A stretch of DNA of 64,000 bases from Patescibacteria group bacterium (lineage in GTDB: Bacteria > Patescibacteriota > Patescibacteriia > JAXHNJ01): NCBI GenBank assembly GCA_041649715.1, contig JBAZMP010000003.1, positions 167,690-231,689 of the forward strand. The letters are read 5' to 3'. The notes beneath the pieces are model-generated. The model did no database searches. It saw only the letters and a program-made list of their open reading frames with translations, and was not told where the DNA came from. The position numbers and the translations under genes were made by a program. Below, piece by piece: positions 1,253-60,979 of this stretch (its first letter is position 1; each line of letters starts with the position of its first letter).

Positions 1253-1280
1253 TTGACTAAAAAAATTCTTGTGCTAAGAT
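1253..1280 (+). promoter_or_regulatory. sigma70-like promoter candidate (TTGACT -N16- TG-n-TAAGAT) for small-protein operon
   Basis: -35 TTGACT at 1253-1258, extended -10 TGcTAAGAT ending 1280, ~55 nt upstream of first SD/ATG. Confidence 0.4.
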
Positions 1281-1334
1281 ACAAAAACATTATCTTTGTT
1301 CTTTTTAGCCTAGAAAAGGGAGGATTAGATAAAA

Positions 1335-1523
1335 ATGCCGAGAGTCTGCCAATTCCAAGAGGAATGTATTAGTTATGTACCGTCAATGAATAGCCGCGAA
1401 AGACTTTGGTGGCTTCTGAAAAACATCTGCTGCCGATACGCAGAAAAAGGCCGCTGCCGGCGTAAATTATGCCTGGCGCATTACGACCAAGAGATCTTTC
1501 CTCAAAAAAAGAAGGGAGCCTAA
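1335..1523 (+). CDS. small Cys-rich hypothetical protein (62 aa; C5,C11,C32,C33,C41,C46)
   Basis: ORF preceded by AAGGGAGG SD ~12 nt upstream; translationally coupled (TAAaATG) to next ORF; GC-rich relative to neighbours; antisense 145-aa ORF judged spurious. Confidence 0.45.
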   Translation: MPRVCQFQEECISYVPSMNSRERLWWLLKNICCRYAEKGRCRRKLCLAHYDQEIFPQKKKGA

Positions 1524-1524
1524 A

Positions 1525-1791
1525 ATGGCCGAAGAGAGAAAGGAAAACAAAAAGATGGTAACCCTGGAAACCGATCCCCTGCTGGCAGATTTCGCCAAAA
1601 TCCTCAACAGCAACCGCAGCGCGGCAAGAAAACACGAGCAACTCCGCCGCTTCATGCACCTTCAGACCCTGCGTATCCGCACCCGGGAAATCGAGGGAGT
1701 TATACACGACACTCACGCCACGGAAGGCACCATGGTCGGCCTGCACGCCCTTATCCTTACCAAAATGATGGATCTCGGCTTGAAAAAATAG
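1525..1791 (+). CDS. hypothetical protein (88 aa)
   Basis: Starts 2 nt after stop of previous ORF; AAGGGAG SD 9 nt upstream; followed by intrinsic terminator. Confidence 0.45.
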   Translation: MAEERKENKKMVTLETDPLLADFAKILNSNRSAARKHEQLRRFMHLQTLRIRTREIEGVIHDTHATEGTMVGLHALILTKMMDLGLKK

Positions 1792-1808
1792 CCCGCCCGA
1801 AACCAAAA

Positions 1809-1835
1809 CCCTGTCCCGAAAAGACAGGGTTTTTT
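1809..1835 (+). terminator. rho-independent terminator (CCCTGTC-ccgaaaa-GACAGGG-TTTTTT)
   Basis: Perfect 7-bp GC-rich stem followed by T6. Confidence 0.75.
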
Positions 1836-1884
1836 ATCCAGTTAAAAATCAGGTTTCTAACGAAAAATTGCCCGTTATGACTTT

Positions 1885-2664
1885 TTGTGGTTTACTGATA
1901 ATAATATCCACAACTTTCTTACAAACATAAAAATTAATAAATTCGACAAAATTAGCCAAGTATTTTCTTCTACCGTTAATCAAACAAAAGAGTTTGTCCG
2001 CACCCCTTTATTTCTGAAACTTATTGGTGACGTAAGAAATAAAAATGTGGCTGATTTTGGCTGCGGCGACGGTTTTTTTACCAGGATACTGGCGCAAAAT
2101 TTTGCCCGTAAAGTCATGGGCGTTGATTATTCTGAAAAGATGATTAAAACAGCCATTGAGAAAGAAAAAGTGAATCCCCTAAAGATCACGTATTTATTGG
2201 AAGATGTCAGATTTTTAAGAATGAAAGAAAAATTCGATTTGATATCGGCCGTATATCTTTTAGATTATGCCGAATCTAAAGAGGACCTATTAAAAATGGC
2301 CCTGACTGCTTATCACCATCTTAATCCAGGGGGAAAATTTTGCGCCATTGTTCCACATCCACATATTCAACCAACGAAAGATTTTGAATTTGAAAGAAAA
2401 ATAACTTCCCTAGATAATAAAGATAAATTCAAAGACGGAGACCGATTGAAATGCGAGATCAAAAAAAATGATAAACAATTCGAGTTTATTTTTTATTATT
2501 GGTCAAAAGACACTTATAACAATATATTATCTAAAGCCGGCTTCAAAGACATTACGTGGGTTGAACCATTTATCTCGGAAAGGGGCCTTAAATTATTCGG
2601 TCCAGAATATTGGCAAAATTTTCTGAAAAAACCATCAACCATCGGTTTTATCGGCCATAAATAA
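1885..2664 (+). CDS. class I SAM-dependent methyltransferase (small-molecule MTase-like), low-GC island
   Basis: Motif I VADFGCGDGFFT, motif post-I GVDYSEKMI, LEDVRFL acidic motif; ~33% GC versus ~55% in flanks; start codon uncertain (TTG in track, no in-frame ATG for first ~90 codons). Confidence 0.7.
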   Translation: MWFTDNNIHNFLTNIKINKFDKISQVFSSTVNQTKEFVRTPLFLKLIGDVRNKNVADFGCGDGFFTRILAQNFARKVMGVDYSEKMIKTAIEKEKVNPLKITYLLEDVRFLRMKEKFDLISAVYLLDYAESKEDLLKMALTAYHHLNPGGKFCAIVPHPHIQPTKDFEFERKITSLDNKDKFKDGDRLKCEIKKNDKQFEFIFYYWSKDTYNNILSKAGFKDITWVEPFISERGLKLFGPEYWQNFLKKPSTIGFIGHK

Positions 2665-2750
2665 TTATTTGACAACCCTATCTTAAGGCGCTAAGATTTT
2701 AAGCAACAATCGATAATCGATCTTTTCAAAATCACACCGAAGGGAAAACC

Positions 2751-2966
2751 ATGACGCTCGAAACACTCTGTCTTCATCAGAAACACCCCAACGACTGCGA
2801 ACACTATTACCACCCCAATCTGGAAAGAGAAGGCGAAGAAGCCTGCCGCAAGCATCATCTCTGCGCGTATTGTAAAGACGGCCGCTGCCAAAATCCGCGC
2901 ATCGGCAAATATCGAGGCAAATTAGTTCTGCCGAAAGTACAATCACCCGAGCGCGCCCTTCAATAA
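2751..2966 (+). CDS. small Cys/His-rich hypothetical protein (71 aa), distant paralog of ORF 1335..1523
   Basis: AAGGGA SD 5 nt before ATG; followed by terminator; shares C-x-Y-x-(E/D)-x-GRC and N-terminal C-(Q/L)-x-Q motifs with the 62-aa protein; GC-rich. Confidence 0.45.
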   Translation: MTLETLCLHQKHPNDCEHYYHPNLEREGEEACRKHHLCAYCKDGRCQNPRIGKYRGKLVLPKVQSPERALQ

Positions 2967-2985
2967 CTTGTAAGGGCGTTTTTTT
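2954..2985 (+). terminator. rho-independent terminator (CGCCCTT-loop-AAGGGCG-T7)
   Basis: 7-bp stem plus T-run immediately after stop of 2751..2966. Confidence 0.65.
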
Positions 2986-3066
2986 AGACAAGTCCAGACT
3001 CAAGACACCCGCGCTGTTTTTCGTGGCAAACACAACGCGGATCTCTTGAGCCCGCGTTGGCTTTTT

Positions 3067-3411
3067 TTATTTCTTTACAATTTTATGCGGATGATATTTT
3101 TCCACGTAGTAAATCTGTCTATCAATTTCTTCAAACGAAAAATCTGCCCCGTCTGTGACAATCAGTTTTATTTCCCCGTCATTTTCCCTTAAAACCACGG
3201 CGATAACTATTCCGTCAAAATTAACCAGAGGCTTATCCGGTCCCAAAATATAGGCATCAATTTCTTCCCCGTCAGCTTCCGACTTCGTTCCGGGAATAAA
3301 ACCGTAATTAGTTTGATACTTATTCTGCGGATAATCGGGATGCGCCGAATTTAAGGGCCGGTCGATAGCCACTTTCACCTTTTTTCCTAACCACTGTTTA
3401 TAATTATCCAT
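3067..3411 (-). CDS. inorganic pyrophosphatase-like protein, N-terminally short (matches only C-terminal half of family I PPase)
   Basis: EADGEEIDAYILGP (cf. DGDPLDVLVL), IVIAVVLRENDGEIKLIV, EEIDRQIYYVEKYHP (cf. EIEHFFEHYK); start placed at MDNYKQ with AAGGGGAA SD, abutting stop of upstream gene. Confidence 0.45.
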   Translation of the reverse strand: MDNYKQWLGKKVKVAIDRPLNSAHPDYPQNKYQTNYGFIPGTKSEADGEEIDAYILGPDKPLVNFDGIVIAVVLRENDGEIKLIVTDGADFSFEEIDRQIYYVEKYHPHKIVKK

Positions 3412-3412
3412 A

Positions 3413-4066
3413 TTATTTCCCCTTTTCCTTCCCCCAACAAACAATCAGGGCGTGAAATTCATTATATAATTTGTAAGACTTCGGCAATCGTTTTTCAAAA
3501 TATTCTTTATATTCATTATAAGTTTTAAATTCAACGCCGTACTTTTTACACAGTCTTCGGGTATAGGCGTCGATGACAAAGGAAGGCTTTCCGCCTGCGT
3601 ATAATAAAATTGAATCGGCTGTTTCCGGACCGATGCCGTGGACCGCCAATAATTCCTCGCGGCATTTTTTTAATGGTTTCTTAAAGAACTTTTTTAGACT
3701 GCCTTGATAATTTTCCATAAGCCATAAACTATACGCCTTAAGCTTTTTGGCTTTTTCATTATAATAGCCCGAGGAGCGAATCAACCCCCTTAATTTAATT
3801 GGCGAAATATTCAATATTTTTCTCGGAGACAATATTCTTTCCTTTTTAAGTTTATAAATGGCACGCTCCACGTTTCCCCAATTCGTATTCTGGGTTAATA
3901 TCGCCCCCAGACAGACTTCAAACATATTTTTCTCATTATTGACACATATTTTCTTTCTCAATATCTTATCCTCTTGATCTCTCGATATCTTTATATCTAG
4001 CACCGGCCACCAATCCTGGCGTCCGTATTTTTTCGACAAACTCAGATAAATCTTGATTAAATTCAT
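3413..4066 (-). CDS. HhH-GPD superfamily DNA glycosylase (endonuclease III / MagIII-like, no Fe-S cysteine cluster)
   Basis: Helix-hairpin-helix LLAVHGIGPETADSILLYA followed by catalytic Asp (VIDAY); no C-terminal 4-Cys motif. Confidence 0.7.
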   Translation of the reverse strand: MNLIKIYLSLSKKYGRQDWWPVLDIKISRDQEDKILRKKICVNNEKNMFEVCLGAILTQNTNWGNVERAIYKLKKERILSPRKILNISPIKLRGLIRSSGYYNEKAKKLKAYSLWLMENYQGSLKKFFKKPLKKCREELLAVHGIGPETADSILLYAGGKPSFVIDAYTRRLCKKYGVEFKTYNEYKEYFEKRLPKSYKLYNEFHALIVCWGKEKGK

Positions 4067-5462: not shown

Positions 5463-6976
5463 TTCTCACCTCCCATCGGGTAGTTCGGCGCACTTTCCGT
5501 GATAATAATGTCGTGCGGATGGCTTTCCCGTACCCCGGCCGCTGTCACCTGCATGTAGGAAGTTTCCCAGAGATCAGTGATCCGCTCGGCGCCGCAATAG
5601 CCCATGCCGGCGCGCAAGCCGCCCATCAGCTGATAAACAACGTTGGCCAAGGCTCCTTTTATCGGAGTGCGACCCTCAATGCCTTCCGCAATGAGCTTAT
5701 CGCGATCCTTGACATCGCCCTGCTTGTACCGTTCCGCGCTGCCTTCCTGCATGGCAGAAATCGAGCCCATCCCACGGTAAATCTTGTAGTTTTTACCCTG
5801 GTAAGGAATAATCTCGCCGGGGCTTTCATCCGTGCCGGCGAAAAGCGAGCCAATCATGACTGAGCTGGCTCCCGCCGCCAAAGCCTTAACGATATCCCCT
5901 GAATAACGGATACCGCCATCGGCAATCAAGGGCACGCCTGCCTTGTGGCAGACTTCAGCGCATTCCAGGATCGCAGAAAACTGGGCCATGCCTACGCCCG
6001 TAATCACCCGTGTGGTACAGATGGCCGAAGGCCCCATCCCGACCTTTATCGCGTCCGCGCCCCAATCGATTAAATCCTGCGCTGCTTGAGCCGTGACTAC
6101 GTTGCCAGCTATGACCGGTAAAGTCGGATACCGCTCGTTCAGACGCTCAAGCATGTTCTTCATGTTCTTCAGATTATCACCATGAGCGGTATCAACCACA
6201 ATCACATCGACCCCGGCTTTGACCAAAAGATCAACTCGCTCCTGGTTATTCAGCCACACGTCGCCAACGGCGGCCCCGACAAGCAATCTGCCCTTTCCAT
6301 CCAGAGCGACCTGCGGATAAAGAGAGCGCTTTCGGATGTCATTGCGGGTATAAAGCCCGACCAGGATTTTCTTTTTTCCGTCCATCCGGATAACCGGCAG
6401 CTTTTCCACCCGCTTCTCCATCATTCTCTGCTCTGCTTCTTGAGGCGTGACGCCTTCATTAGCCGTCACCAGTTCGCGCGTCATGATCTCTGTCACCCTT
6501 CTCGTCTTCATCTCGGCTACCGGACAGGATTCCACGTCCTTGTGGGTAACAATACCCAAAAGTTCACGGTCTTGCCCGATCACCGGCAGACCCGCCACCC
6601 GACACTTAATCATATACCGGCTGACTTCTTCCACCGTCTGCTCCGGCGTGCAAGTGTAAGGGTCAGGAATCAAAGCATTCATCCAGCGCTTGACCCGCTC
6701 TACTTGTCCCGCCTGAATTCCCGGCGAAAGGTTACGGTGAATGATACCGATGCCGCCATCCAAATCTACCGCAATGGCTAATTCGAACTCGGTCACCGTG
6801 TCCATGGCCGCTGAGACTATGGGGATATTTAGTTTAATCGCCCTCTTTTTTCCCCGACTGGCCGTTATATCAGTGCCGATTTCCACCTCGTGCGGCATCT
6901 TGACGGCCAGGCCCGGTCGTAACAACACATCGTCAAACGTTAAACCGAGACCTTTAAATCTTTCCTTCGCCTCCAT
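5459..6976 (-). CDS. guaB: IMP dehydrogenase with CBS pair
   Basis: GGIGIIHRN, tandem CBS domains, catalytic loop [25 protein letters not shown]. Confidence 0.9.
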
Positions 6977-7158
6977 TTTCCCTCACTCCTTTCTCAGTTC
7001 TGCAAATACCCAATTTACTGACGGTTTTATTCCACTCCTTTCCTTGTTTTCTTTGAATTTTCAATGAGCATGCTTTCAAAAAGCGAGTCCTTTACCTTAC
7101 CAAAAAAGGCTGACTTTTGTCAACTTCATATAGGCCGGCTTGTCTGATATCTCAATTG

Positions 7159-7344
7159 CTAAAATTTTATTCCGAAATGGTCGCCCCAAAATCGGAGGAA
7201 AACTAAGATAAGAGCCATGAGAAACAAGGCCCAAAACAGCTTTAGGAAATTAAAGCCCTTTTTCAAACCCTCTTTGACGGGATTATAAACCGGCCCCCCA
7301 TACTTTATCTTATCGCGGGCTCTTTGGTAATCGGAAAGCTTCAT
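7159..7344 (-). CDS. small membrane protein (61 aa), hypothetical
   Basis: Hydrophobic helix; overlaps rmuC stop by 4 nt (operonic). Confidence 0.35.
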   Translation of the reverse strand: MKLSDYQRARDKIKYGGPVYNPVKEGLKKGFNFLKLFWALFLMALILVFLRFWGDHFGIKF

Positions 7345-8399
7345 TCTTCTCCTTCTTTAGGCTTTTCTAATTCTATCGGCTCCACCCCGCCACCCGTACC
7401 AGCGATCTTGAATACATCCCTGTCAATCTTTTTAAACTCCTTATAAGCGGTGTTATAACTGCCCACCGCCGTGCCTAATTGGCTGCCTAATTTTTCCAGA
7501 TAAGAGTCAAAATTCAAAATATGCTTGCCTAAGACCTCCACGTTCTTTCTAATCTCCAGGGCCGACTCCTCAATCTGCAGCGCTCTCAACCCCTGCAAGA
7601 CCATCTGCAGATAGGCCATGAATGTGGTCGGCGAAACAATGATCACATGCTTTTCCTTGAAAGCGTAATCGATGAGATCACGGGTGGAAATCTTGACCGC
7701 TCCGACCTTGTTCACCAGCAGGTCGTAATAAATCGCTTCGGAAGGAATAAACATGAAGGCGAAGTCATAGGTTTTTTCGGCCGGCCGGACATACTTGGCG
7801 GTTTCGTCAATCCGGTTTTTTAAATCCTGTTTAAAAAGTTTTTCCAGTTCCTGGCGCCTTTCTTCATTATGTTCTTCAACAATCTTATTATAATTTTCCA
7901 GAGAAAACTTGGAATCCACCGAGATGATTTTATCTTTAATGAAAATAACCGCGTCCACGATTTCCCCGTTTTTGAACTTATACTGCATCTGGTAGCTTTT
8001 CGGCGGCAAAACGTTCTTTAAAACGGTCTCCAAATAATATTCCCCCAAAATCCCCCTTTGTTTGGGATTCTTCAAAATATCCTGCAAAGACTGCAATTGA
8101 TCGGAAAAATTCAATACCTGGCGGTTCGTCTCGTCTAATTTCGTCAGTTTTTCCGTCACCTCGCGGATTATCTGGGCATCCTGGCTGCGCTGGGCGGCAA
8201 ACATTTTCGTGGACTCGCCCATTTTATTGTCCAAAGTCCGGTTGATCTCACTGATCTGGTTCTGCAGCATCAAAAGAGACTGTTCATCTTTTTTAACCTC
8301 TCCCAACCCCTTGAGTTTCCGGGACAAAATAAAGTAAATAAAAACCGCCAAAAACACTCCCACGAGAATAACGCCGATAATTATTGACCATGTTTGCAT
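7341..8399 (-). CDS. rmuC: DNA recombination protein RmuC
   Basis: N-terminal TM helix, long coiled coil, conserved FMFIPSEAIYYDLL nuclease-like core of RmuC/DUF195. Confidence 0.75.
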   Translation of the reverse strand: MQTWSIIIGVILVGVFLAVFIYFILSRKLKGLGEVKKDEQSLLMLQNQISEINRTLDNKMGESTKMFAAQRSQDAQIIREVTEKLTKLDETNRQVLNFSDQLQSLQDILKNPKQRGILGEYYLETVLKNVLPPKSYQMQYKFKNGEIVDAVIFIKDKIISVDSKFSLENYNKIVEEHNEERRQELEKLFKQDLKNRIDETAKYVRPAEKTYDFAFMFIPSEAIYYDLLVNKVGAVKISTRDLIDYAFKEKHVIIVSPTTFMAYLQMVLQGLRALQIEESALEIRKNVEVLGKHILNFDSYLEKLGSQLGTAVGSYNTAYKEFKKIDRDVFKIAGTGGGVEPIELEKPKEGEE

Positions 8400-8404
8400 A
8401 ATCT

Positions 8405-8437
8405 TGATATCTTAATCGCTTGATATCTTGATATCTT
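8405..8437. repeat. intergenic repeat family copy R1 (GATATCTTAATCGCTTGATATCTTGATATCTTA)
   Basis: Shares core ATCT(T/C)AATCGCTT(G/A)ATATCT with copies at 18984-19045 and 55338-55370; sits between tatD stop and rmuC start. Confidence 0.6.
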
Positions 8438-8440
8438 ATT

Positions 8441-9217
8441 TTAAATCTTAAAAAATCCTTCCGCGTTCTTTCCCGTCTGCTCAACCACTTTTTCCACCGG
8501 AATATTTTTCAATTCAGCGATTTTCTTGGCCACTTCGACAACGTATATCGGCTCGCAACGTTTGCCGCGATACGCCTGAGGCGCCAAATAAGGCGCATCG
8601 GTTTCTATAAACATCTTTTCTAATGGCACCTCTTTTACCACGGAAAAGAGTTCTTGGTCATCGGTAAAAGTGATAATGCCGGTAAACCCCAAGTAAAAGC
8701 CCAGAGCCAACAAACGTCGGGCAATTTCGCGGGAAGACAAAAAGCAATGGACGACCGCCGGAATCTCTTCTTCTTCTTTCATCAATGCGATCAGATCCTC
8801 ATAAGCGTCCCGGCAGTGCAAAATCACCGGCACGCCCGCTTGTCTGGCCACGCCCAAATGTTTCTTCAAAAGCTCTTTCTGCCCTTCTTTGGCTCTTGCT
8901 TCTTCTTCTTTGGACTCCGCCCACATCTGGTAATAATCCAAGCCCGTTTCCCCGACGGCCACCACTTTATTATCTTTGGCCAGTTTCAAATATTCTTCCG
9001 GCGAGAATTCTTCGTCATTGATATGGGTCGGGTGCAGACCGACGGCCCCAAAAACAAAATCAAACTCATGGGACATATCAGCGGCTTTTTTACTGTTTTG
9101 CATCTGCGAACCGACCGTTATCACCTTCATCCCTTTTTCTTGACAACGCTTGGCCACCTCACGATAATCTTTCTCAAAAGCCTCGAAATTTAAATGACAA
9201 TGGGTGTCTATTAGCAT
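8441..9217 (-). CDS. tatD: TatD-family metal-dependent hydrolase/DNase
   Basis: MLIDTHCHL N-terminus, conserved His/Asp/Glu metal ligands (HCF, ETDAPYL). Confidence 0.8.
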   Translation of the reverse strand: MLIDTHCHLNFEAFEKDYREVAKRCQEKGMKVITVGSQMQNSKKAADMSHEFDFVFGAVGLHPTHINDEEFSPEEYLKLAKDNKVVAVGETGLDYYQMWAESKEEEARAKEGQKELLKKHLGVARQAGVPVILHCRDAYEDLIALMKEEEEIPAVVHCFLSSREIARRLLALGFYLGFTGIITFTDDQELFSVVKEVPLEKMFIETDAPYLAPQAYRGKRCEPIYVVEVAKKIAELKNIPVEKVVEQTGKNAEGFFKI

Positions 9218-9285
9218 GTTTGTTGGTTTATTTTTCTACCTACTATTATTCTTGATATTTTAATTGTGCTTATAATAATGGTTTA

Positions 9286-9466
9286 AATCCCAAGCACCAA
9301 ATCCCAAGCACCAAACAAATTCGAAATCACAATTTTCTAAATTCCAAACCGCTCGCCTTTAAGATTATGTATATTATTTTGAATTTTGGAATTTTCCGCC
9401 AAAGGCGGATCAGCCCCGGGCTGAGAATTTGTTTTGAATTTTGTGCTTTGGATTTTGGATTTGGAG
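9286..9466. repeat. long imperfect palindrome (tandem AAATCCCAAGCACC x2 ... GTGCTTTGGATTTTGGATTTGG) with central GC hairpins
   Basis: Left arm 9286-9348 and right arm 9379-9466 are imperfect reverse complements; centre has CCGCCAAAGGCGG and CAGCCCCGGGCTG hairpins. Confidence 0.55.
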
Positions 9467-9482
9467 AAAATAGACAAACAAG

Positions 9483-9821
9483 CTAACAAGTCAGATGTAT
9501 CAGCGCCGCCACTCTTTTTCCTTCTTTTTTCAGCCGATTATATTCTTCGCAGGCGGCGGCCGAATCCTTAACGATCAGGGGAATTTTTTTGTCGGCGAAA
9601 AAATCATGGACTTCCTGACCAACCTGCATAATTGAGTCCGCGCCGTTGCCTATAATGATTATTTCTGGCTGCTCGCCGATAACTTGCCTGACATCGTCTT
9701 CATAAACCGCGTGGCCGGAAACCCGCTTCCAGTCAGATACTTTATCGGGGCCGACAAAAACATCTTTCTGATATTGCCGGCCGTCTATCACGATCCGGCC
9801 GAACTCATAAAGATCAATCAT
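9483..9821 (-). CDS. Mth938-like domain protein (DUF498 family)
   Basis: IDLYEFGRIVIDGRQYQKDVFV ... IIIIGNGADS pattern typical of Mth938/AAMDC fold. Confidence 0.55.
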   Translation of the reverse strand: MIDLYEFGRIVIDGRQYQKDVFVGPDKVSDWKRVSGHAVYEDDVRQVIGEQPEIIIIGNGADSIMQVGQEVHDFFADKKIPLIVKDSAAACEEYNRLKKEGKRVAALIHLTC

Positions 9822-10327
9822 TTGGGAATAATCTCGTTAAATTTTCGGACAGCCTCCGGAAACAAAGGCACCAGCCAGGAAGAAAAAACGACGAATATGT
9901 TAACCAGTTGGGAATTCTCGAAAGTATAGGCGAGAACCGTCCCTGAGCTGATCGTCTTGATAAAATTCAAGATAACGCCCAGGATCAATCCGCCCTCAAC
10001 CGCTCCTAAAAACAATCCTCCCAAACGGTTCAGCAAACTAAAACCGGGCAGGATCGCCACCGCCCCGAAGGTTTTGCTGATCAGACGGACCAAAGCGCCG
10101 ACAAGCTTGGAAATCAAGATAAGAAGGATGATAAAAGCGGCAATCTTGACCCCCATATTATCTTTAAGGCCGAAAAAGGCCACGAGATCGTCATACCAGC
10201 GGCTCGCCAAAATCACCCCTAAAAAAATTCCGACGATTGAACCCGCGGTCTCGATCAAACCCCGCCAGAAGCCGAACCAACAAAAGCCCAAAAAAGCCAT
10301 TAAAATCGCACCGTCAAAAAATTCCAT
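9818..10327 (-). CDS. cvpA: CvpA-family membrane protein (colicin V production protein)
   Basis: N-terminal FDGAILMAFLGFCWFGFWRGLI motif and 4 TM helices characteristic of CvpA. Confidence 0.7.
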   Translation of the reverse strand: MEFFDGAILMAFLGFCWFGFWRGLIETAGSIVGIFLGVILASRWYDDLVAFFGLKDNMGVKIAAFIILLILISKLVGALVRLISKTFGAVAILPGFSLLNRLGGLFLGAVEGGLILGVILNFIKTISSGTVLAYTFENSQLVNIFVVFSSWLVPLFPEAVRKFNEIIPK

Positions 10328-10339
10328 ATGATATATCGG

Positions 10340-11791
10340 TTAATTAATTCGGGGGAATATAGCCTCACCCTTAGTTATTTTACCACAAACCAGGGAATTA
10401 GTAATTCTGGCGGCGGTCTGCGGCATAAAAGGCGCCAAAGCCCGGGCCAGATCGCAAAGCATCGCCGCCAATTCGCTAAGAAGCTTTTCAAGTTTATCGC
10501 GGTCTTTTTTCTCTTTGGTCTTGGCCAATTTCCAGGGTTCGTTCTTATCAATTTCCTGATTCGCCCAAGTGACGGCATTTAAGATCTCGCTAAGCGCCTG
10601 GTCAAAGGAATAATTCTCAATTAAAGTATTTACTTTGCTAAAATCCTTGGGACTTTTCAAGATTTTGGGGATTTTACCGGCGCAATATTTTTCAATCATA
10701 TTCAAGACTCTGGCCACTAGATTACCCAGATTATTGGCCAAATCCGCGTTGTATTTTTCCCTGAATCTTGATTCGCTAATATCACCGTCTGACCCGAAGA
10801 TAAATTGTGAAATCAATAGATAACGGGCCGCGTCTACCCCGTATTTTTCCACTAAAAGATTGGGGTCCAGCGCATTGCCCAAAGTCTTAGACATTTTCTG
10901 TTTATCAATAGTGAAATAACCATGAATAAATTCCTCTTTTGGCGGATGTTCACCAACCGCTAAAAGTAAGGCGGGCCAGTAAACCGCGTGAAATTTTAAT
11001 ATCTCCTTGGCCATTAAGTGCAGATCCGCCGGCCACCATTTTTTGTATTCTTTTGCATTATCGCCATAACCAATGGCGGAAATATAATTCTGCAAAGCCT
11101 CGACCCAGACATAAACCACCTGTTTTTTATCAAAAACCAAAGGAATCCCCCATTTCACTTTTTCCCGAGAAACAGAAAAATCTTCCAAACCCTGATTGAT
11201 TAAAGACAAAACCTCGTTTTTCCTGGCCACCGGCAATATTTTAATCTCATCTTTTTCAATCAGCTCTTTCACTTGATCGATATAATTACCCAGTTTGAAA
11301 AAATAGTTATTTTCCGACAGTTTCACCGGCTCCTTTTTATGATCAGCGCATTTCCCATCAACTAAGTCTTTCTCGGTCATAAACTTTTCGCAACCCTCGC
11401 AATACAAACCCTCGTATTGGTCTTCGTAAATCGCTCCATTTTCTTTAAGTTTCAACATAAACTTGTCTACCGACTCGACGTGCCTTTTATCCGTGGTTCG
11501 GATAAAATAATCGTATTCAATGCCTAAATTCTGCCAGGCTACTTTGAATAAGGCCGTAACTTCATCACAAAAAGCCTGCGGGGTTTTTCCCTCTTTTTCC
11601 GCCGCTTGGGCTACTTTTGTCCCGTGCTCATCGGTGCCTGTTAAAAAGAAAACCTTATCCTTGCCCAGTTTATTCCGCCAGTAACGCGCTAAAATATCGG
11701 CCGCTAAGGTCGTATAAGCGTGACCGATATGCGGTTTATCATTAACGTAATATATGGGCGTTGTAATGTAGAATTTTTTGGGCATTGACAT
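10340..11791 (-). CDS. metG: methionyl-tRNA synthetase (short form, no C-terminal tRNA-binding domain)
   Basis: HIGH motif PHIGHAYT, zinc knuckle CEGCEKF...CADHKK, KMSKS motif KMSKTLGN. Confidence 0.9.
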   Translation of the reverse strand: MSMPKKFYITTPIYYVNDKPHIGHAYTTLAADILARYWRNKLGKDKVFFLTGTDEHGTKVAQAAEKEGKTPQAFCDEVTALFKVAWQNLGIEYDYFIRTTDKRHVESVDKFMLKLKENGAIYEDQYEGLYCEGCEKFMTEKDLVDGKCADHKKEPVKLSENNYFFKLGNYIDQVKELIEKDEIKILPVARKNEVLSLINQGLEDFSVSREKVKWGIPLVFDKKQVVYVWVEALQNYISAIGYGDNAKEYKKWWPADLHLMAKEILKFHAVYWPALLLAVGEHPPKEEFIHGYFTIDKQKMSKTLGNALDPNLLVEKYGVDAARYLLISQFIFGSDGDISESRFREKYNADLANNLGNLVARVLNMIEKYCAGKIPKILKSPKDFSKVNTLIENYSFDQALSEILNAVTWANQEIDKNEPWKLAKTKEKKDRDKLEKLLSELAAMLCDLARALAPFMPQTAARITNSLVCGKITKGEAIFPRIN

Positions 11792-11861
11792 ATTATTATT
11801 TATAGACTATAATAATTTAATTTATTTGCTCTTTACCTGTTACCAACGAAGGAGGTCGTAG

Positions 11862-12158
11862 ATGATCAATGTCAGTCCTAAAGCAGGAACGTTCTTGCGC
11901 CAGATCCGGACGAGTTTGCCGGAAGGTTCCGCCGAAAAGCGGTTGGTGGAACAACTGATAACTGGATCAATCCATATGCTCAGCCAAGCGGAACGCCAGA
12001 GCCTGGCTGATCTTTGCGGAAAGACCGCCATCAACGGACTCGAGGTACCGTTGCATCTACGGCGGGAATTCCAGGTGATCAGCGAGAGCATCCGCGCTTT
12101 CCGAACCCAGCAAGAGGTGAAATTCAGGCAGCGTCGCAATAGGCAAGCCGAGGGCTAA
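11862..12158 (+). CDS. hypothetical protein (98 aa), GC-rich
   Basis: Strong SD GAAGGAGG 6 nt upstream of ATG; followed by perfect-stem terminator; antisense ORF rejected. Confidence 0.45.
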   Translation: MINVSPKAGTFLRQIRTSLPEGSAEKRLVEQLITGSIHMLSQAERQSLADLCGKTAINGLEVPLHLRREFQVISESIRAFRTQQEVKFRQRRNRQAEG

Positions 12159-17133: not shown

Positions 17134-18288
17134 TCAAGAATAATCATACCAGGTGATCGCTTCAGAAACGCCTATCAGGCTCTTCTTCGCTGCCTCCCAC
17201 TCTTTCGCTTTAAGCGACAGATAAGCGGCTCGGGCATTTTTTATGGCTTCATCTAAACACTTCTTCTGGAAATCTTTCTCCTCCACCAGAATCATCTGGC
17301 CGGCGATCTCGCGCAGCTTCATGATGAGCGAGGCTTTAACAAAGAGGCCGGTATTGATGACGTAGGTGACTTCCAGAATAAGGTCTTCTACTTCCCCCTG
17401 GATTTTTTTCAAGCTCAGGGAATTATACGCCCGGCTTATTTCGACGATTGCTTCCTCAATCCGGTTGGCCAGGATCAGATCGGCGCCCTTTTGAAGTTCC
17501 TTAGTGCCAAGCTCCGCATTAGCGAGGAAAGGTTGAAAGTTTATCACCTCCAAATCAACGATAATGCTGTGGAGCCGGGCGACCATCCGCTGCCTGACCC
17601 TTTCCTCCACCTGATACTGACGCCCTTCACTGAAATCGACAATCGCTTTAAGGAAATGGCAGGATGAAGCGAGCAGATACTCGGCGAAATCGAAAACCGC
17701 TTTTGAAGCCAATAACCGAGGCATTAAGATTTCCTCGATTTTTTCGATTGTAACGAGACGCTCGCCAAACCGGTTGCCGGCGGCCACCGACCGGGCGCGC
17801 AAAGCGCCGGGATTGATTCGGCCCAACGAATCATGGACCAGAGGTATCGGCTCGATCACCCGCAAGCCATTCTCCTTGGTCTCGTCTCTCACCCGGCCGA
17901 CAATCCGGAAAATCTCGTCGACCCTTTCTGTCAATGCCTTTTCATAACCGGCGAGATTACCTTTATTAAGGCCGATCACCGCCAGATTCAATTCCTTGGC
18001 GGCTTCAATCGCTTGCCTCATGACCGACTTCTCGCCGTAATAAGGCTGGTCGTAGCCATTCAGAATGTCTACGACCTGGCGGTGAAAAAGATAAATGCTC
18101 GACAGAAGCTGGAATTTTCTTGTTTCACCCGACCATTTCGGGACGGCGAATTGACCCTTGTGCTTTCCTTCCGTGATCAAGATAACCCGTGTGTTAAGCA
18201 GATACCGACCCCTGGCTTTACCTCGGTGTCTGTACAATTCCGCCTCACCATGGACCCGGCTCAAGAAACGATAAGCCATGATAACCAC
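17134..18288 (-). CDS. hypothetical protein (384 aa), orphan, GC-rich
   Basis: GAGGTGG SD 7 nt upstream; N-terminal alpha/beta region (VIGLNKGNLAGYEKAL) plus C-terminal all-alpha region; no family recognised. Confidence 0.5.
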   Translation of the reverse strand: MVIMAYRFLSRVHGEAELYRHRGKARGRYLLNTRVILITEGKHKGQFAVPKWSGETRKFQLLSSIYLFHRQVVDILNGYDQPYYGEKSVMRQAIEAAKELNLAVIGLNKGNLAGYEKALTERVDEIFRIVGRVRDETKENGLRVIEPIPLVHDSLGRINPGALRARSVAAGNRFGERLVTIEKIEEILMPRLLASKAVFDFAEYLLASSCHFLKAIVDFSEGRQYQVEERVRQRMVARLHSIIVDLEVINFQPFLANAELGTKELQKGADLILANRIEEAIVEISRAYNSLSLKKIQGEVEDLILEVTYVINTGLFVKASLIMKLREIAGQMILVEEKDFQKKCLDEAIKNARAAYLSLKAKEWEAAKKSLIGVSEAITWYDYS

Positions 18289-18305
18289 CTCGATTTTTAA
18301 AGTAC

Positions 18306-18339
18306 AAGAACAAAAAAGCTACCTAATCTTGATAGCTTA
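18306..18339 (-). terminator. rho-independent terminator between small membrane-protein pair and 384-aa ORF
   Basis: AAGCTA-loop-TAGCTT hairpin followed by T6 on minus strand. Confidence 0.5.
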
Positions 18340-18394
18340 ACTTAGCGCGATTCTAATACTTTGTCAATCTCGGATGTTGATAAAAATTTAGTAA

Positions 18395-18679
18395 TTATTT
18401 TTTAATAACGGCGGCCTCTTTTTGATTAATCCGCCTTATTATTAAAGCAAATATTATAAATAGAGATAAAGATAAAATTATACCTACTATTCCAATAATA
18501 AATGGTCCTTGAACTAAGGCCAAAAAAGCAACCAGTGGCCATACAGCCGCAACAAAAAAATAACCCATTATATCGTTCCCTAACCCGCTGTTAGAAGCAA
18601 ATAAATTCGCCCAACCTATCCCGATAATAAAATAAAGTATAAGAGCGGAGATGATTGTGTGTTTTTTCAAAATATTCAT
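18395..18679 (-). CDS. small membrane protein (94 aa), paralog of 18687..18980
   Basis: MNILKKHTIISALILYFIIG... RRINQKEA; 3 TM helices; ~30% GC. Confidence 0.5.
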   Translation of the reverse strand: MNILKKHTIISALILYFIIGIGWANLFASNSGLGNDIMGYFFVAAVWPLVAFLALVQGPFIIGIVGIILSLSLFIIFALIIRRINQKEAAVIKK

Positions 18680-34984: not shown

Positions 34985-35100
34985 GCTCTATTCGTTCTAT
35001 CGCCTTCGGGCTAGTACAAAGGATTAGAACGAGTGAACCGACAGAACGCCTAAAAAGATTACAACATACACGGGGATGCCAAAATTCGATAGAACGTTAA
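34985..35100. repeat. palindromic element copy B (TTCGTTCTATCGCC ... TTCGATAGAACGTT) spanning smpB-ssrA junction
   Basis: Left arm 34988-35000, right arm 35086-35099 lies inside tmRNA 5' region. Confidence 0.5.
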
Positions 35101-35462
35101 CAAGGTAAGCTATGCAAGCCGAGCCCGATGGAAACTCGCTAAAAGTCCGTCAAATGATAAGTGTCAAAAACTTATTCAGCAAACTAAGAGAAGCTTTTTC
35201 TCCTAAATTTGCTTTTGCTGCCGTTTAATTAACCGCAGCCATCTGTAAAAGCTGATACCTAATAGGCTCTTATGGGTGTCAAAATATTAGGCATGACTGA
35301 CCGGTTGTCTTGGCGGGTCAGTCGAGAGCACAAAAAGACTTTAGACTTTAAGGTTTTGTTTCTTTCCCACTTAGAGTCCGAACTAAAACCAAAGAAAACA
35401 CGCTTGTAGAATATTTTGCCTTTACTTTCTAGACGCGGGTGCAAGGCCCGCCATCTCCACCA
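35072..35462 (+). ncRNA. ssrA: tmRNA (SsrA)
   Basis: 5' GGGGATG pairs with 3' CATCTCC-ACCA giving a 7-bp acceptor stem with G3:U70 (alanine identity); T-arm GCGGG-TGCAAGG-CCCGC; ATTCGA D-loop-like motif; PK1-like TATGCAAGCCGAG; immediately downstream of smpB; candidate tag ORF ending ...KFAFAAV-TAA near 35200-35230 (uncertain). Confidence 0.75.
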
Positions 35463-39025: not shown

Positions 39026-39103
39026 TGGCGGACCCGACGAGATTCGAACTCGTGATCTCCTCCGTGACAGGGAGGCGTGTTAGGCCAGCTACACCACGGG
39101 TCC
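39026..39103 (-). tRNA. tRNA-Asp (anticodon GUC), CCA encoded
   Basis: Reverse complement GGACCCG-TG-GTGT-AGCTGGCCTA-ACAC-G-CCTCC-CTGTCAC-GGAGG-AGATC-ACGAG-TTCGAAT-CTCGT-CGGGTCC-G-CCA folds into canonical cloverleaf. Confidence 0.85.
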
Positions 39104-60254: not shown

Positions 60255-60455
60255 TGATTAAATCCTTTCGACCGAAGGCTTTTACTTAAGGTATCCTGGC
60301 TTACAGAGGATTGGCTCATCTTTCCCTTCCCCCCAACCTCCTTCCTAGACGGAAAGCGTTAGAAGTGGTTTAAAAGACTGGCTTCTCTGTTTACAGTGAC
60401 GGGATCGCGCCGGATTCACACCGGACTTCCCTTTTTCTTGGTCTTAACTTTCAAC
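60255..60455 (-). promoter_or_regulatory. cobalamin (AdoCbl) riboswitch with terminator-type expression platform
   Basis: Minus-strand RNA reads AAAAAGGGAAGTCCGGTGTGAATCCGGCGCGATCCCGTCACTGTAAACAG...GTAAGCCAGGATACCTTAAG (B12-box) followed by AAACCCT-loop-AGGGTTT-T7 terminator and SD AAAGGA before DUF4430 ATG. Confidence 0.7.
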
Positions 60456-60472
60456 CAAGAAATATTAAATTT

Positions 60473-60979
60473 TTAATATTCGATGCCTTTTCGGGCCCTT
60501 ACTCCCTGATTGAAGTAATGCTTGACGGCCCGCATTTCTGTGACTAAATCCGCTTGTTCAAGTATCTTACCACAGGCGCCTCGGCCTGTCAAAATAATTT
60601 CTGTGGATAAAGATTTACCCTTGATAAGCTTTAAAATATCCGCCGGGGCAATTAACTTGAGTTTGGCCGCGACATTTATTTCATCCAGTATCACCAGGTC
60701 AGATCTTCCTTCTTTGACCATCCGGCCGGCATAAGCCAGGGCCTCACGCGCCGCTTTCCGGTCTATGGCGCTCGGCCTGCTAAAATTAACAAAAGCCCGC
60801 CGGCCGAATTGTTTGACGGTTATGTTTTTGAATTTTTTTAACGCTTTGACCTCGCCAAAATCCCCTTTTTTCATGAACTGGATCAGGCAGACTTTTTTCC
60901 CCTGGCCCAAGGCCCTTAAGGCCTGCCCTAAAGCGGCCGTGGTCTTTCCCTTGCCGTCGCCGGTATAGACCTGGATCAT
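60473..60979 (-). CDS. btuR: cob(I)yrinic acid a,c-diamide / cob(I)alamin adenosyltransferase (CobA/BtuR family)
   Basis: [37 protein letters not shown] P-loop region. Confidence 0.8.
   Translation of the reverse strand: [168 protein letters not shown]

Follow-up and report, generated by a model that had tools for sequence, protein, structure and literature searches.

A narrowly distributed operon of cysteine-rich microproteins and a helical partner protein beside an endonuclease III gene in Patescibacteria

Cysteine-rich microproteins and a helical partner protein are encoded by a previously undescribed operon of Patescibacteria, located beside a gene for an endonuclease III-like protein (EndoIII). 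The operon is very narrowly distributed, being limited to a narrow clade within this group, and the stretch of DNA analysed here (64,000 nucleotides, hereafter the window) carries a rearranged copy of it. We favour the view that the microproteins are cytoplasmic, zinc-binding adaptor or regulatory proteins. Taken as a whole, the explanation that this narrow-clade operon codes for zinc-finger-like microproteins and their helical partner, and that the methyltransferase gene lying among them is unrelated, has in our judgement about even chances of being right.

All features of the window copy are located on the plus strand. Promoter P1 (1253..1280) is composed of a -35 box TTGACT (1253-1258), a 16-nt spacer and an extended -10 element TGcTAAGAT (1272-1280), just as a first-pass annotation of this DNA had proposed. 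Two short genes follow. The ORF list places the first, W62, at 1335..1523 with a Shine-Dalgarno (SD) site GGGAGGA at 1318-1324; its product is a Cys-rich microprotein of 62 aa, basic (pI 9.4), with a single histidine and six cysteines at positions 5, 11, 32, 33, 41 and 46. The second, W88 (1525..1791; SD GAAGGGAG at 1511-1518), codes for an all-helical partner of 88 aa (type C). The two genes are translationally coupled through the junction TAA-A-ATG, with one base between stop codon and ATG. The unit is closed by intrinsic terminator 1 (1805..1839), whose hairpin (1805-1833, inverted repeat I10) consists of a perfect 11-bp stem and a 7-nt loop, is followed by a U-run and has a free energy of -15.4 kcal/mol (z = -4.3). 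A consensus terminator scan missed it because part of the T-run is absorbed into the stem. Direct reading and the ORF list agree with the first-pass annotation also on the coupled 62-aa and 88-aa ORFs, each with its SD site, on the perfect terminator behind them, and on the 71-aa ORF and low-GC methyltransferase gene further downstream. The sequence directly past terminator 1 (ATCCnGTTAAAAAT…TTCTAACG) is also found after the terminator of the related cassette in genome L004. W62 is present in no public gene call, and its exact sequence is missing from a collection of 15 billion proteins. A search with Rfam found no known RNA between 1100 and 3200.

The third small gene, W71, stands behind a second copy of the cassette promoter. 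This promoter, P2 (2669..2697), consists of TTGACA (2669-2674), a 17-nt spacer and TAAGAT (2692-2697), and its best alignment is to the promoter of the L087 cassette. W71 (2751..2966; SD GAAGGGA at 2739-2745) codes for a 71-aa type-A microprotein of pI 8.6 with six cysteines and six histidines. It has been described as independently terminated, and terminator 2 (2953..2986) bears this out: a hairpin (2953-2979; -14.3 kcal/mol, z = -3.2) with the W71 stop codon inside its loop precedes a run of U7. The pattern ATTTGAC-N15-18-GCTAAG occurs exactly twice in the 64 kb, at the P1 and P2 sites, and in none of 100 shuffled sequences. An element nearly identical to P1 lies upstream of the L004 cassette, and the ATTTGAC…GCTAAG promoter is kept in all three genomes known to carry the cassette.

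Conservation of the small-protein cassette in related genomes, suggested earlier as a check, was indeed found: the same cassette adjoins the same EndoIII gene in two further Patescibacteria genomes (L004; L084/L087), both times without the methyltransferase gene. Behind the common promoter it comprises one to three genes for tiny Cys-rich microproteins, soluble and for the most part basic, then a gene for a helical protein of ~90 aa. Searching with W71 by tblastn led to a tandem pair of small ORFs in L004, where the helicase is 88% identical. Among 1.84 billion protein representatives, a profile scan picked out one true homologue, P0004 (C65; 65 aa, E = 2.8e-9); in its contigs, L084 and L087, the promoter is followed by genes for 65-aa, 77-aa and 90-aa proteins, a terminator and then EndoIII. 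L087 was also the sole find of a metagenome scan with a two-sequence alignment. L002 is identical to the window and so offers no polymorphism for comparison.

In pairwise comparison, W71 is 48% identical to C65 (E = 1.5e-17), and it is 40% and 37% identical to L4b and L4a of L004, respectively. W88 shares 33% identity over 87 aa (E = 4e-10) with C90, the 90-aa protein of L087, and 29% with the C-terminal half of L4c, a protein of 131 aa from L004. L4c in turn matches C77 with its N-terminus (40% identity, E = 6e-10) and C90 with its C-terminus (39%, E = 6e-6). The helical gene and the Cys gene preceding it are coupled in the window, overlapping in L087 and fused in L004. As L004 is a metagenome-assembled genome (MAG), an assembly error could in principle have produced the type B-type C fusion in L4c; this is unlikely because the fusion is in-frame with a clean deletion.

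The genes flanking the cassette are 79-88% identical at the protein level and 77-82% at the DNA level, compared with only 29-48% amino acid identity inside the cassette, figures that rest on very few sequences, as the cassette is known from three genomes only, all of them MAGs. DNA similarity within the cassette is undetectable by blastn between genomes. The locus between the conserved genes is variable, its contents differing in L004, L005 and L087. Adjacency to the helicase was considered as a fixed feature and rejected, the left neighbour in L084 being different. Searching the window and 80 helicase-anchored loci with HMMs of types A, B and C revealed no additional copies; word-index homology searches with W62, W88 and W71 returned the query itself or nothing, and tblastn against phages and scans of viral contigs gave no matches.

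All Cys-rich members carry the signature C-x5-8-C-x2-Y … C-x5-7-C, with G-x-C at the last cysteine. Type A is defined by the pattern C-x5-8-C-x2-Y-x17-18-C-x-[YF]-x3-G-x-C, encoded by a small ORF that lies downstream of the ATTTGAC…GCTAAG promoter. This pattern is present in W71, P0004, L4a, L4b and W62 and in no other ORF among 1.63 million six-frame residues. Invariant across these five proteins are C5, C11, Y14, C33, G39 and C41 (W62 numbering). In the Cys proteins, Cys content is 6-12%, with eight cysteines in P0004. Type-A proteins have pI values of 7.6-10.1. Their similarity to type B is weak in hhalign (P = 0.007, probability 5%).

Judged by sequence comparison, W62 is a divergent paralogue of W71, a relationship already put forward in the first-pass annotation. 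A signature built on three proteins with W62 left out found W62 as the sole extra match in the 1.63 million six-frame residues, and hhalign of W62 against the type-A profile gave P = 7.8e-5 (probability 61%); the score of W62 in a leave-one-out plain HMM is weak (6.3 bits, E = 15). The repeat search found a 15-nt remnant common to both genes at the GRC codons. The C-terminal motif proposed for the pair, C-x-Y-x-(E/D)-x-G-R-C, stands as C-x-Y-x3-G-R-C, but its acidic residue is out of register (CRYAEKGRC versus CAYCKDGRC).

That the small ORFs are real, conserved genes we regard as very likely. The contrary reading takes them as chance ORFs or part of a long 5' leader, the antisense 145-aa ORF being the real gene; it can point to W62 being missed by all public pipelines and to the word-index searches without homologues. 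We hold it to be barely tenable, and for W71 and W88 already refuted. Only the sense frames are conserved, over three genomes and despite the lack of detectable DNA similarity, with tblastx of the type-A gene giving 46 bits in the sense frame and at most 30 elsewhere. The antisense ORFs, among them the 145-aa one, whose better conservation would have spoken against the small genes, show no similarity to any counterpart in pairwise comparison. SD sites, the conserved promoter and terminators are all present.

Between the W62-W88 operon and W71 lies a gene for a class I SAM-dependent methyltransferase (1885..2664), assigned by its motif DFGCGDG and its match to Pfam Methyltransf_25 (61.4 bits, cut-off 27). 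Its sole plausible start is the TTG at 1885, which lacks an SD site. The protein is above no equivalog cut-off in NCBIfam, the best model being UbiG (50.8 versus 102.95 bits). Its GC content, 33.7%, agrees with the AT-richness (~33% GC) reported at first and falls into the lowest 0.5% of 780-bp windows, the mean of the whole window being 45.4% (sd ~5%). The small ORFs had in turn been called GC-rich (~55%); their measured values of 46.6%, 53.2% and 50.9% are ordinary for the window. The GC analysis, proposed as a check for horizontal transfer, therefore singles out the methyltransferase gene as a strong outlier and leaves the small ORFs unremarkable, and this outlying composition suggests a separate acquisition. 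No tblastn match to the methyltransferase was found in L004-L083, nor is there such an ORF in L084/L087. A search for repeats revealed no target-site duplication at its flanks. We are rather confident that the gene is a lineage-specific, low-GC insertion outside the conserved cassette and not part of the system. An unrelated gene, it would have been acquired horizontally by a recent insertion, and would now split W62-W88 from W71, which was left under its own copy of the promoter. The proposal that Cys peptide, partner and methyltransferase form one module is not supported, given an enzyme of generic class I that is a GC outlier and missing from the cassettes of L004 and L084/L087.

No significant match to the small proteins was found in Pfam, NCBIfam, PHROGs or PADLOC, and profile searches of the PDB with the Cys family and type C gave only noise, in agreement with the initial impression that no known family is recognisable. 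A weak match of W88 to DUF7593 was rejected as chance: at 17 bits it stays below the cut-off of 27, and it does not recur in the W88 homologue. For W71 and W62, AF2 reached a pLDDT of only 51, and therefore no fold can be assigned to the Cys proteins. Single-sequence AF2 modelled W88 as one long helix (residues 18-83, pLDDT 77), a result of no help in searching for a fold. Small proteins of the zinc-ribbon and treble-clef type have two CxxC (or CPxCG) knuckles on beta-hairpins; within the two conserved Cys pairs of the cassette proteins the intervals are x5-8 and x5-7, where those knuckles have x2. The CCCH zinc finger (PF00642), C-x7-8-C-x4-5-C-x3-H, was rejected as an assignment: the motif is not conserved, and only W62 has a third cysteine and a histidine, in the wrong spacing.

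Our proposal for function starts from the Cys proteins, which we think somewhat more probably bind metal than not, to go by their residue patterns. The four conserved cysteines would most likely coordinate a single structural metal ion, for which Zn(Cys)4 is the default guess. W71, P0004 and L4a have an extra Cys pair, present or absent together, and nearby histidines, which suggests that these three proteins may possess a second metal site. The coupled, overlapping and fused arrangements of the genes suggest that the helical protein is probably bound by the Cys protein whose gene directly precedes its own; for such a complex we see the chances as evenly balanced. We take the microproteins to be cytoplasmic and zinc-finger-like; with the helical partner at their side they would bind to nucleic acid or to another protein, or serve as adaptors there. 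That their role is a regulatory one, or involves binding of nucleic acid, is only tentatively suggested. More speculatively still, and rather improbably, the cassette may be a fast-evolving two-component system of this Patescibacteria lineage, in which variable zinc-finger microproteins dock onto a helical effector and diversify under conflict, for example with phages or, in an episymbiont, with its host cell; such diversification would explain the low identity of the cassette next to well-conserved neighbouring genes. Speaking against the zinc-finger explanation, the spacings C-x5-C and C-x7-C differ from the classical CxxC zinc knuckles.

Other functions have to be weighed against a zinc-binding adaptor. 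A Cys-rich small ORF adjoining a methyltransferase gene in the window invites the reading of a RiPP-like, peptide-modification module whose precursor peptides are modified by the SAM methyltransferase, and a model for daptide RiPP methyltransferases does match weakly. The match, at 28 bits, lies below its cut-off of 175 bits, and the generic UbiG and BioC models score higher. Since the enzyme occurs in neither of the other cassettes and stands out by its GC content, the pairing of peptide and modifying enzyme is unsupported; synteny largely refutes it, as peptide and enzyme do not consistently co-occur. No other maturase, radical-SAM enzyme, protease or exporter/transporter is present in any of the three loci, conservation spans the whole peptide without a leader/core pattern, and we give this reading next to no weight. 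The peptides might instead be secreted, as Cys-rich effectors or as bacteriocins paired with an immunity protein, and owe their rapid evolution to interaction with a host or competitor in an episymbiotic CPR bacterium; this would fit small, Cys-rich paralogues and the gap in identity between cassette and flanks. It is nevertheless very improbable: the cassette has no transporter, no member contains a signal peptide or hydrophobic stretch (maximum Kyte-Doolittle value of a 19-residue window <1.2), and a Cys domain fused to the helical protein is a poor fit to a bacteriocin and immunity pair.

The first-pass annotation thought of metal-binding or toxin-antitoxin-like modules; the former stays plausible, the latter possible but weak, with no toxin or antitoxin domain found. 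In an addiction or defence module, toxicity would come from the 88-aa helical protein and be countered by the Cys protein encoded upstream, acting as antitoxin. Such a reading is in keeping with two short genes in a translationally coupled unit (62 aa, followed by 88 aa), the variable spot between conserved genes and very fast divergence. Type II toxin-antitoxin operons likewise combine two short coupled genes with variable neighbourhoods and fast divergence. In the cassette, however, no toxin or antitoxin family of Pfam, no PADLOC defence model and no PHROGs family was matched, both parts are one polypeptide in L004, which is unusual for such a pair, and the three to four genes include several paralogues of the Cys protein. 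The chromosomal position beside EndoIII in three of three genomes does not speak for a mobile element either, and we consider this function unlikely. Hardly more probable is a role in metal handling, with the Cys proteins as metallothionein-like buffers, metallochaperones or small Fe-S proteins and not structural zinc fingers. The six cysteines and six histidines of W71 and the eight cysteines of P0004 favour it, and the invariant four-Cys core could equally ligate an Fe-S cluster. Against it, only four cysteines are conserved, His positions vary down to a single histidine in W62, no Pfam model matched, those of metallothioneins and Fe-S proteins included, and the conserved helical partner is left without a role. 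Typical metallothioneins have a higher Cys content than the 6-12% of the Cys proteins, and the bacterial type (SmtA/BmtA) was rejected on these grounds.

Comparable small zinc-finger microproteins of prokaryotes have been reviewed, including the zinc-finger µ-proteins of Haloferax volcanii and the zinc-binding small proteins of Methanosarcina mazei (PMC13525628). Like the type-A proteins, these are stand-alone, soluble, shorter than 80 aa, with four cysteines in two pairs and few or no recognisable domains, and they are often missed by annotation. They mostly use CxxC or C(P)XCG knuckles, whereas the cassette proteins combine C-x5-8-C and C-x5-7-C pairs with a fixed tyrosine and glycine, share no sequence similarity with them and are arranged as paralogues in tandem, sharing their operon with a dedicated helical partner. 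Cyanobacterial NblD is reportedly a further example of a small zinc-finger microprotein. The eukaryote-type CCCH finger (zf-CCCH) resembles the cassette proteins in its first half, C-x-[YF]-x3-G-x-C, and W62 continues with C-x7-C-x4-C-x2-H; W71, P0004, L4a, L4b and the type-B proteins, however, lack the third cysteine and the histidine, the His spacing in W62 is x2, not x3, and there is no Pfam match at E <= 1. DksA/TraR proteins also join a four-Cys metal site (C4 zinc finger) to a long helical element or coiled coil, comparable to the L4c fusion and the W62-W88 pair, but the order of domains is reversed, DksA has CxxC-x17-CxxC, and no Pfam match was found. Type II toxin-antitoxin systems differ from the cassette in the points given above.

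With the cassette, the largely uncharacterised proteomes of CPR/Patescibacteria gain a compact, clearly bounded family of Cys-rich microproteins, one member of which had never been annotated, together with its dedicated helical partner. The series from separate to overlapping to fused genes offers a ready hypothesis of physical interaction, and conserved flanks around a rapidly diverging cassette mark a possible locus of conflict or adaptation. A tempting but wrong annotation as RiPP or peptide methylation is removed. As the family occurs in only three MAGs and no phenotype is tied to it, its wider importance is uncertain. A further point against the zinc-finger explanation is a strain variant (L087 versus L084) in which the core Cys35 is replaced by tyrosine, though Cys34 is adjacent.

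In a Patescibacteria (CPR) MAG, the small-ORF cassette lies on a contig of 235 kb, to the right of a UvrD/PD-(D/E)XK helicase gene on the minus strand (start at 1216). Promoter P1 (1253-1280, plus strand; TTGACT, 16-nt spacer, TGcTAAGAT) precedes the 62-aa ORF W62 (1335-1523, plus; SD GGGAGGA), whose product has six cysteines, and W88 (1525-1791, plus; 88 aa; SD GAAGGGAG), which starts one base past the W62 stop. Terminator 1 (1805-1839, plus) consists of a hairpin paired without mismatch over 11 bp and a U-run (-15.4 kcal/mol, z = -4.3). It is followed by a class I SAM methyltransferase gene (1885-2664, plus; Methyltransf_25, 61 bits), promoter P2 (2669-2697, plus; TTGACA, 17-nt spacer, TAAGAT), the 71-aa ORF W71 (2751-2966, plus; six Cys, six His) and terminator 2 (2953-2986, plus; -14.3 kcal/mol, z = -3.2). 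Next, on the minus strand, are a short ORF resembling pyrophosphatases, the EndoIII-like gene (HhH-GPD) and purA. The promoter core ATTTGAC-N15-18-GCTAAG occurs in 64 kb only at P1 and P2, and in none of 100 shuffles. W88 and W71 are known to NCBI as hypothetical proteins (WC528_05345 and WC528_05355, respectively). Sequence and ORF list thus bear out every element named in the first-pass annotation, each in its place. Its figure of ~55% GC for the small ORFs is not borne out: their 47-53% is ordinary for the window (mean 45.4%, sd about 5%), and the compositional outlier is the methyltransferase gene, whose 33.7% places it among the 0.5% of 780-bp windows poorest in GC. Another patch of strong AT richness (29-34% GC in 780-bp windows) is located around 18100-18500.

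Word-index homology searches with the small proteins returned self-matches only, and the locus from a second sample is identical to the window, so that it carries no polymorphism information. Relatives were found by two other routes. Among 80 helicase-anchored related loci taken from species-representative genomes, locus L004 (helicase 88% and EndoIII 79% identical to those of the window) contains two tandem small ORFs matched by W71 in tblastn, with 40% and 37% identity. Its cassette is ordered as promoter ATTTGACTAATAGAGCTATTGTGCTAAGAT, the same as in the window, the Cys-rich pair L4a (57 aa) and L4b (68 aa), then L4c (131 aa), terminator and EndoIII; a short DNA motif 3' of this terminator is the same one that is present 3' of window terminator 1. 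When 1.84 billion representatives were scanned by HMMER with its filters off, using a W71+W62 profile, one genuine homologue came up, P0004 (65 aa, E = 2.8e-9), the remaining matches being three repeat-protein artefacts. The two P0004 contigs, L084 and L087, represent a third genome (EndoIII 88% identical), where a P2-like promoter is followed by the 65-aa protein, a 77-aa Cys-rich protein (C77), a 90-aa protein (C90), a terminator and EndoIII. BLASTP relates W71 to the 65-aa protein (48% identity, E = 1.5e-17), W88 to C90 (33% over 87 aa, E = 4e-10), C77 to the N-terminus of L4c (40%, E = 6e-10) and C90 to L4c residues 62-99 (39%, E = 6e-6). The first-pass annotation had named a lack of conservation of the small ORFs, with better conservation of an antisense 145-aa ORF, as one finding that would refute it. 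The antisense ORFs of the window, L087 and L004 (145, 218 and 95 aa, respectively) showed no mutual similarity in pairwise comparison, and tblastx of the Cys-rich gene shared by all three cassettes favoured the sense frame. This objection therefore falls, and W71 and W88 are real genes.

Evidence on W62, proposed earlier as a paralogue of W71, is mixed. Direct BLASTP between the two is marginal (E = 0.014) and a leave-one-out HMM gives W62 only 6.3 bits. On the other side, the signature C-x5-8-C-x2-Y-x17-18-C-x-[YF]-x3-G-x-C, derived from W71, L4a and L4b alone, matches in 1.63 million six-frame residues only its three source proteins and W62, the Cys spacing of W62 is exactly that of L4a, hhalign against a four-member profile of the W71-like proteins (type A) yields P = 7.8e-5 over 48 columns in Cys register, and a 15-nt DNA remnant is common to W62 and W71 over their shared GRC codons. 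The C-terminal motif said to be shared by both does exist, in the form C-x-Y-x3-G-R-C; its acidic residue does not line up between the two. The balance leans towards paralogy. The signature, the profile alignment and the remnant, taken with promoter duplication, a strong SD and a place directly before a W88-like gene, make a divergent type-A gene the best reading of W62. Gene callers list the 88-aa and 71-aa ORFs on this contig and miss W62. As its exact sequence is absent from a collection of 15 billion proteins, no pipeline has called it; W62 is an unannotated small gene.

Four cysteines, a tyrosine three residues past the second and a glycine two residues before the fourth are kept in all seven Cys-rich sequences. 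A further cysteine pair (C32/C41 in W71) is found in W71, P0004 and L4a and in neither L4b nor W62; its joint presence or absence suggests a paired role. No Cys-rich member has a hydrophobic segment, and those of type A are mostly basic (pI 7.6-10.1). C77 and the L4c N-terminus (type B) share C-x5-C-x2-Y and G-x-C with type A across a longer linker; hhalign (P = 0.007) is only suggestive of a relationship. One difference in 1420 nt separates L087 from L084: at L087 position 955, in the type-A gene, it changes core Cys35 of the 65-aa protein, which adjoins Cys34, to tyrosine, a warning against over-reading "invariant" cysteines. AF2 models of the Cys-rich proteins are unreliable (pLDDT 51); that of W88 is one long helix (residues 18-83, pLDDT 77). 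In the window, the gene preceding the helical one (type C: W88, C90, L4c C-terminus) is coupled to it; in L087 the two share 44 nt, and in L004 they are fused into one. Such a series is classic evidence of partnership, and we infer that the Cys protein encoded before the type-C protein would physically partner with it.

The methyltransferase is not part of this system. Neither L004-L083 nor L084/L087 contains a counterpart. The gene is a GC outlier, has TTG at 1885 as its sole plausible start, with no SD or clear promoter of its own, and scores under every NCBIfam equivalog cut-off. Given its absence from both other cassettes and its aberrant GC, the methyltransferase-linked peptide modification suggested earlier is not supported. 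It is likely a recent acquisition and possibly poorly expressed. Its PADLOC match to mad2 spans only the generic SAM-binding domain. In alignment, P1 is closest to the promoter of L004 and P2 to that of L087, so that the window appears to hold a cassette which was duplicated or rearranged, with W62-W88 and W71 as its two parts and the methyltransferase gene inserted between them.

Surroundings of the cassette are variable, adjacency to EndoIII being the only constant. Around the cassette, L004 has a 52-aa ORF and two genes for membrane proteins; in L005 unrelated genes occupy the cassette's spot; and in L084 (1-2358, minus) the place of the helicase on the left is taken by an acidic protein that is at least 786 aa long and lacks any Pfam domain. 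The pyrophosphatase-like ORF (3067-3444, minus; 114-125 aa), between W71 and EndoIII, is unique to the window, and L004 and L087 lack it at this position; it matches PF00719 with 27.5 bits over profile positions 11-92 of 153 only. The two extra L004 genes between helicase and cassette (6334-7838, minus) code for a 200-aa protein and a 301-aa multi-pass membrane protein, the latter weakly matching the phage "membrane protein" family phrog_944 (E = 1e-6).

As the first-pass annotation had held, no known family is recognisable: the cassette has no family match in Pfam, NCBIfam, PHROGs, PADLOC, PDB or Rfam, and no phage link was found for it. Membership among CCCH zinc fingers, DksA/TraR proteins, metallothioneins, toxin-antitoxin systems and RiPPs was tested, and none of the five was supported. 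The closest kind to its Cys proteins are stand-alone zinc-finger microproteins of prokaryotes (PMC13525628), from which the cassette differs in Cys spacing, operon organisation and possession of a dedicated partner. It is a genuine and new microprotein family of very narrow distribution, with a helical partner, and metal binding is probable. Flanking genes are 79-88% identical as proteins and 77-82% as DNA; cassette proteins are 29-48% identical, and blastn detects no similarity of cassette DNA except in the promoter. Either constraint is relaxed outside the putative metal ligands or the cassette is diversifying. That it diversifies as a conflict system appears improbable and would be the more interesting case.

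The L004 helicase (8001-11972) carries an insertion of ~358 aa between DDDQ and SVYKFRGA, beginning CLPGETL… and ending …VVHN|S, which the window helicase lacks and which looks like an intein. Left of the window, past the helicase, a 120-aa gene (L001 6322-6684) has precomputed Pfam matches to 23S_rRNA_IVP and bAvd; bAvd is an accessory protein of diversity-generating retroelements. A tmRNA (35072-35462, plus; 108 bits), a tRNA-Asp (39026-39103, minus) and a cobalamin riboswitch (60274-60477, minus; 73 bits) are the only Rfam or ARAGORN matches in the window.
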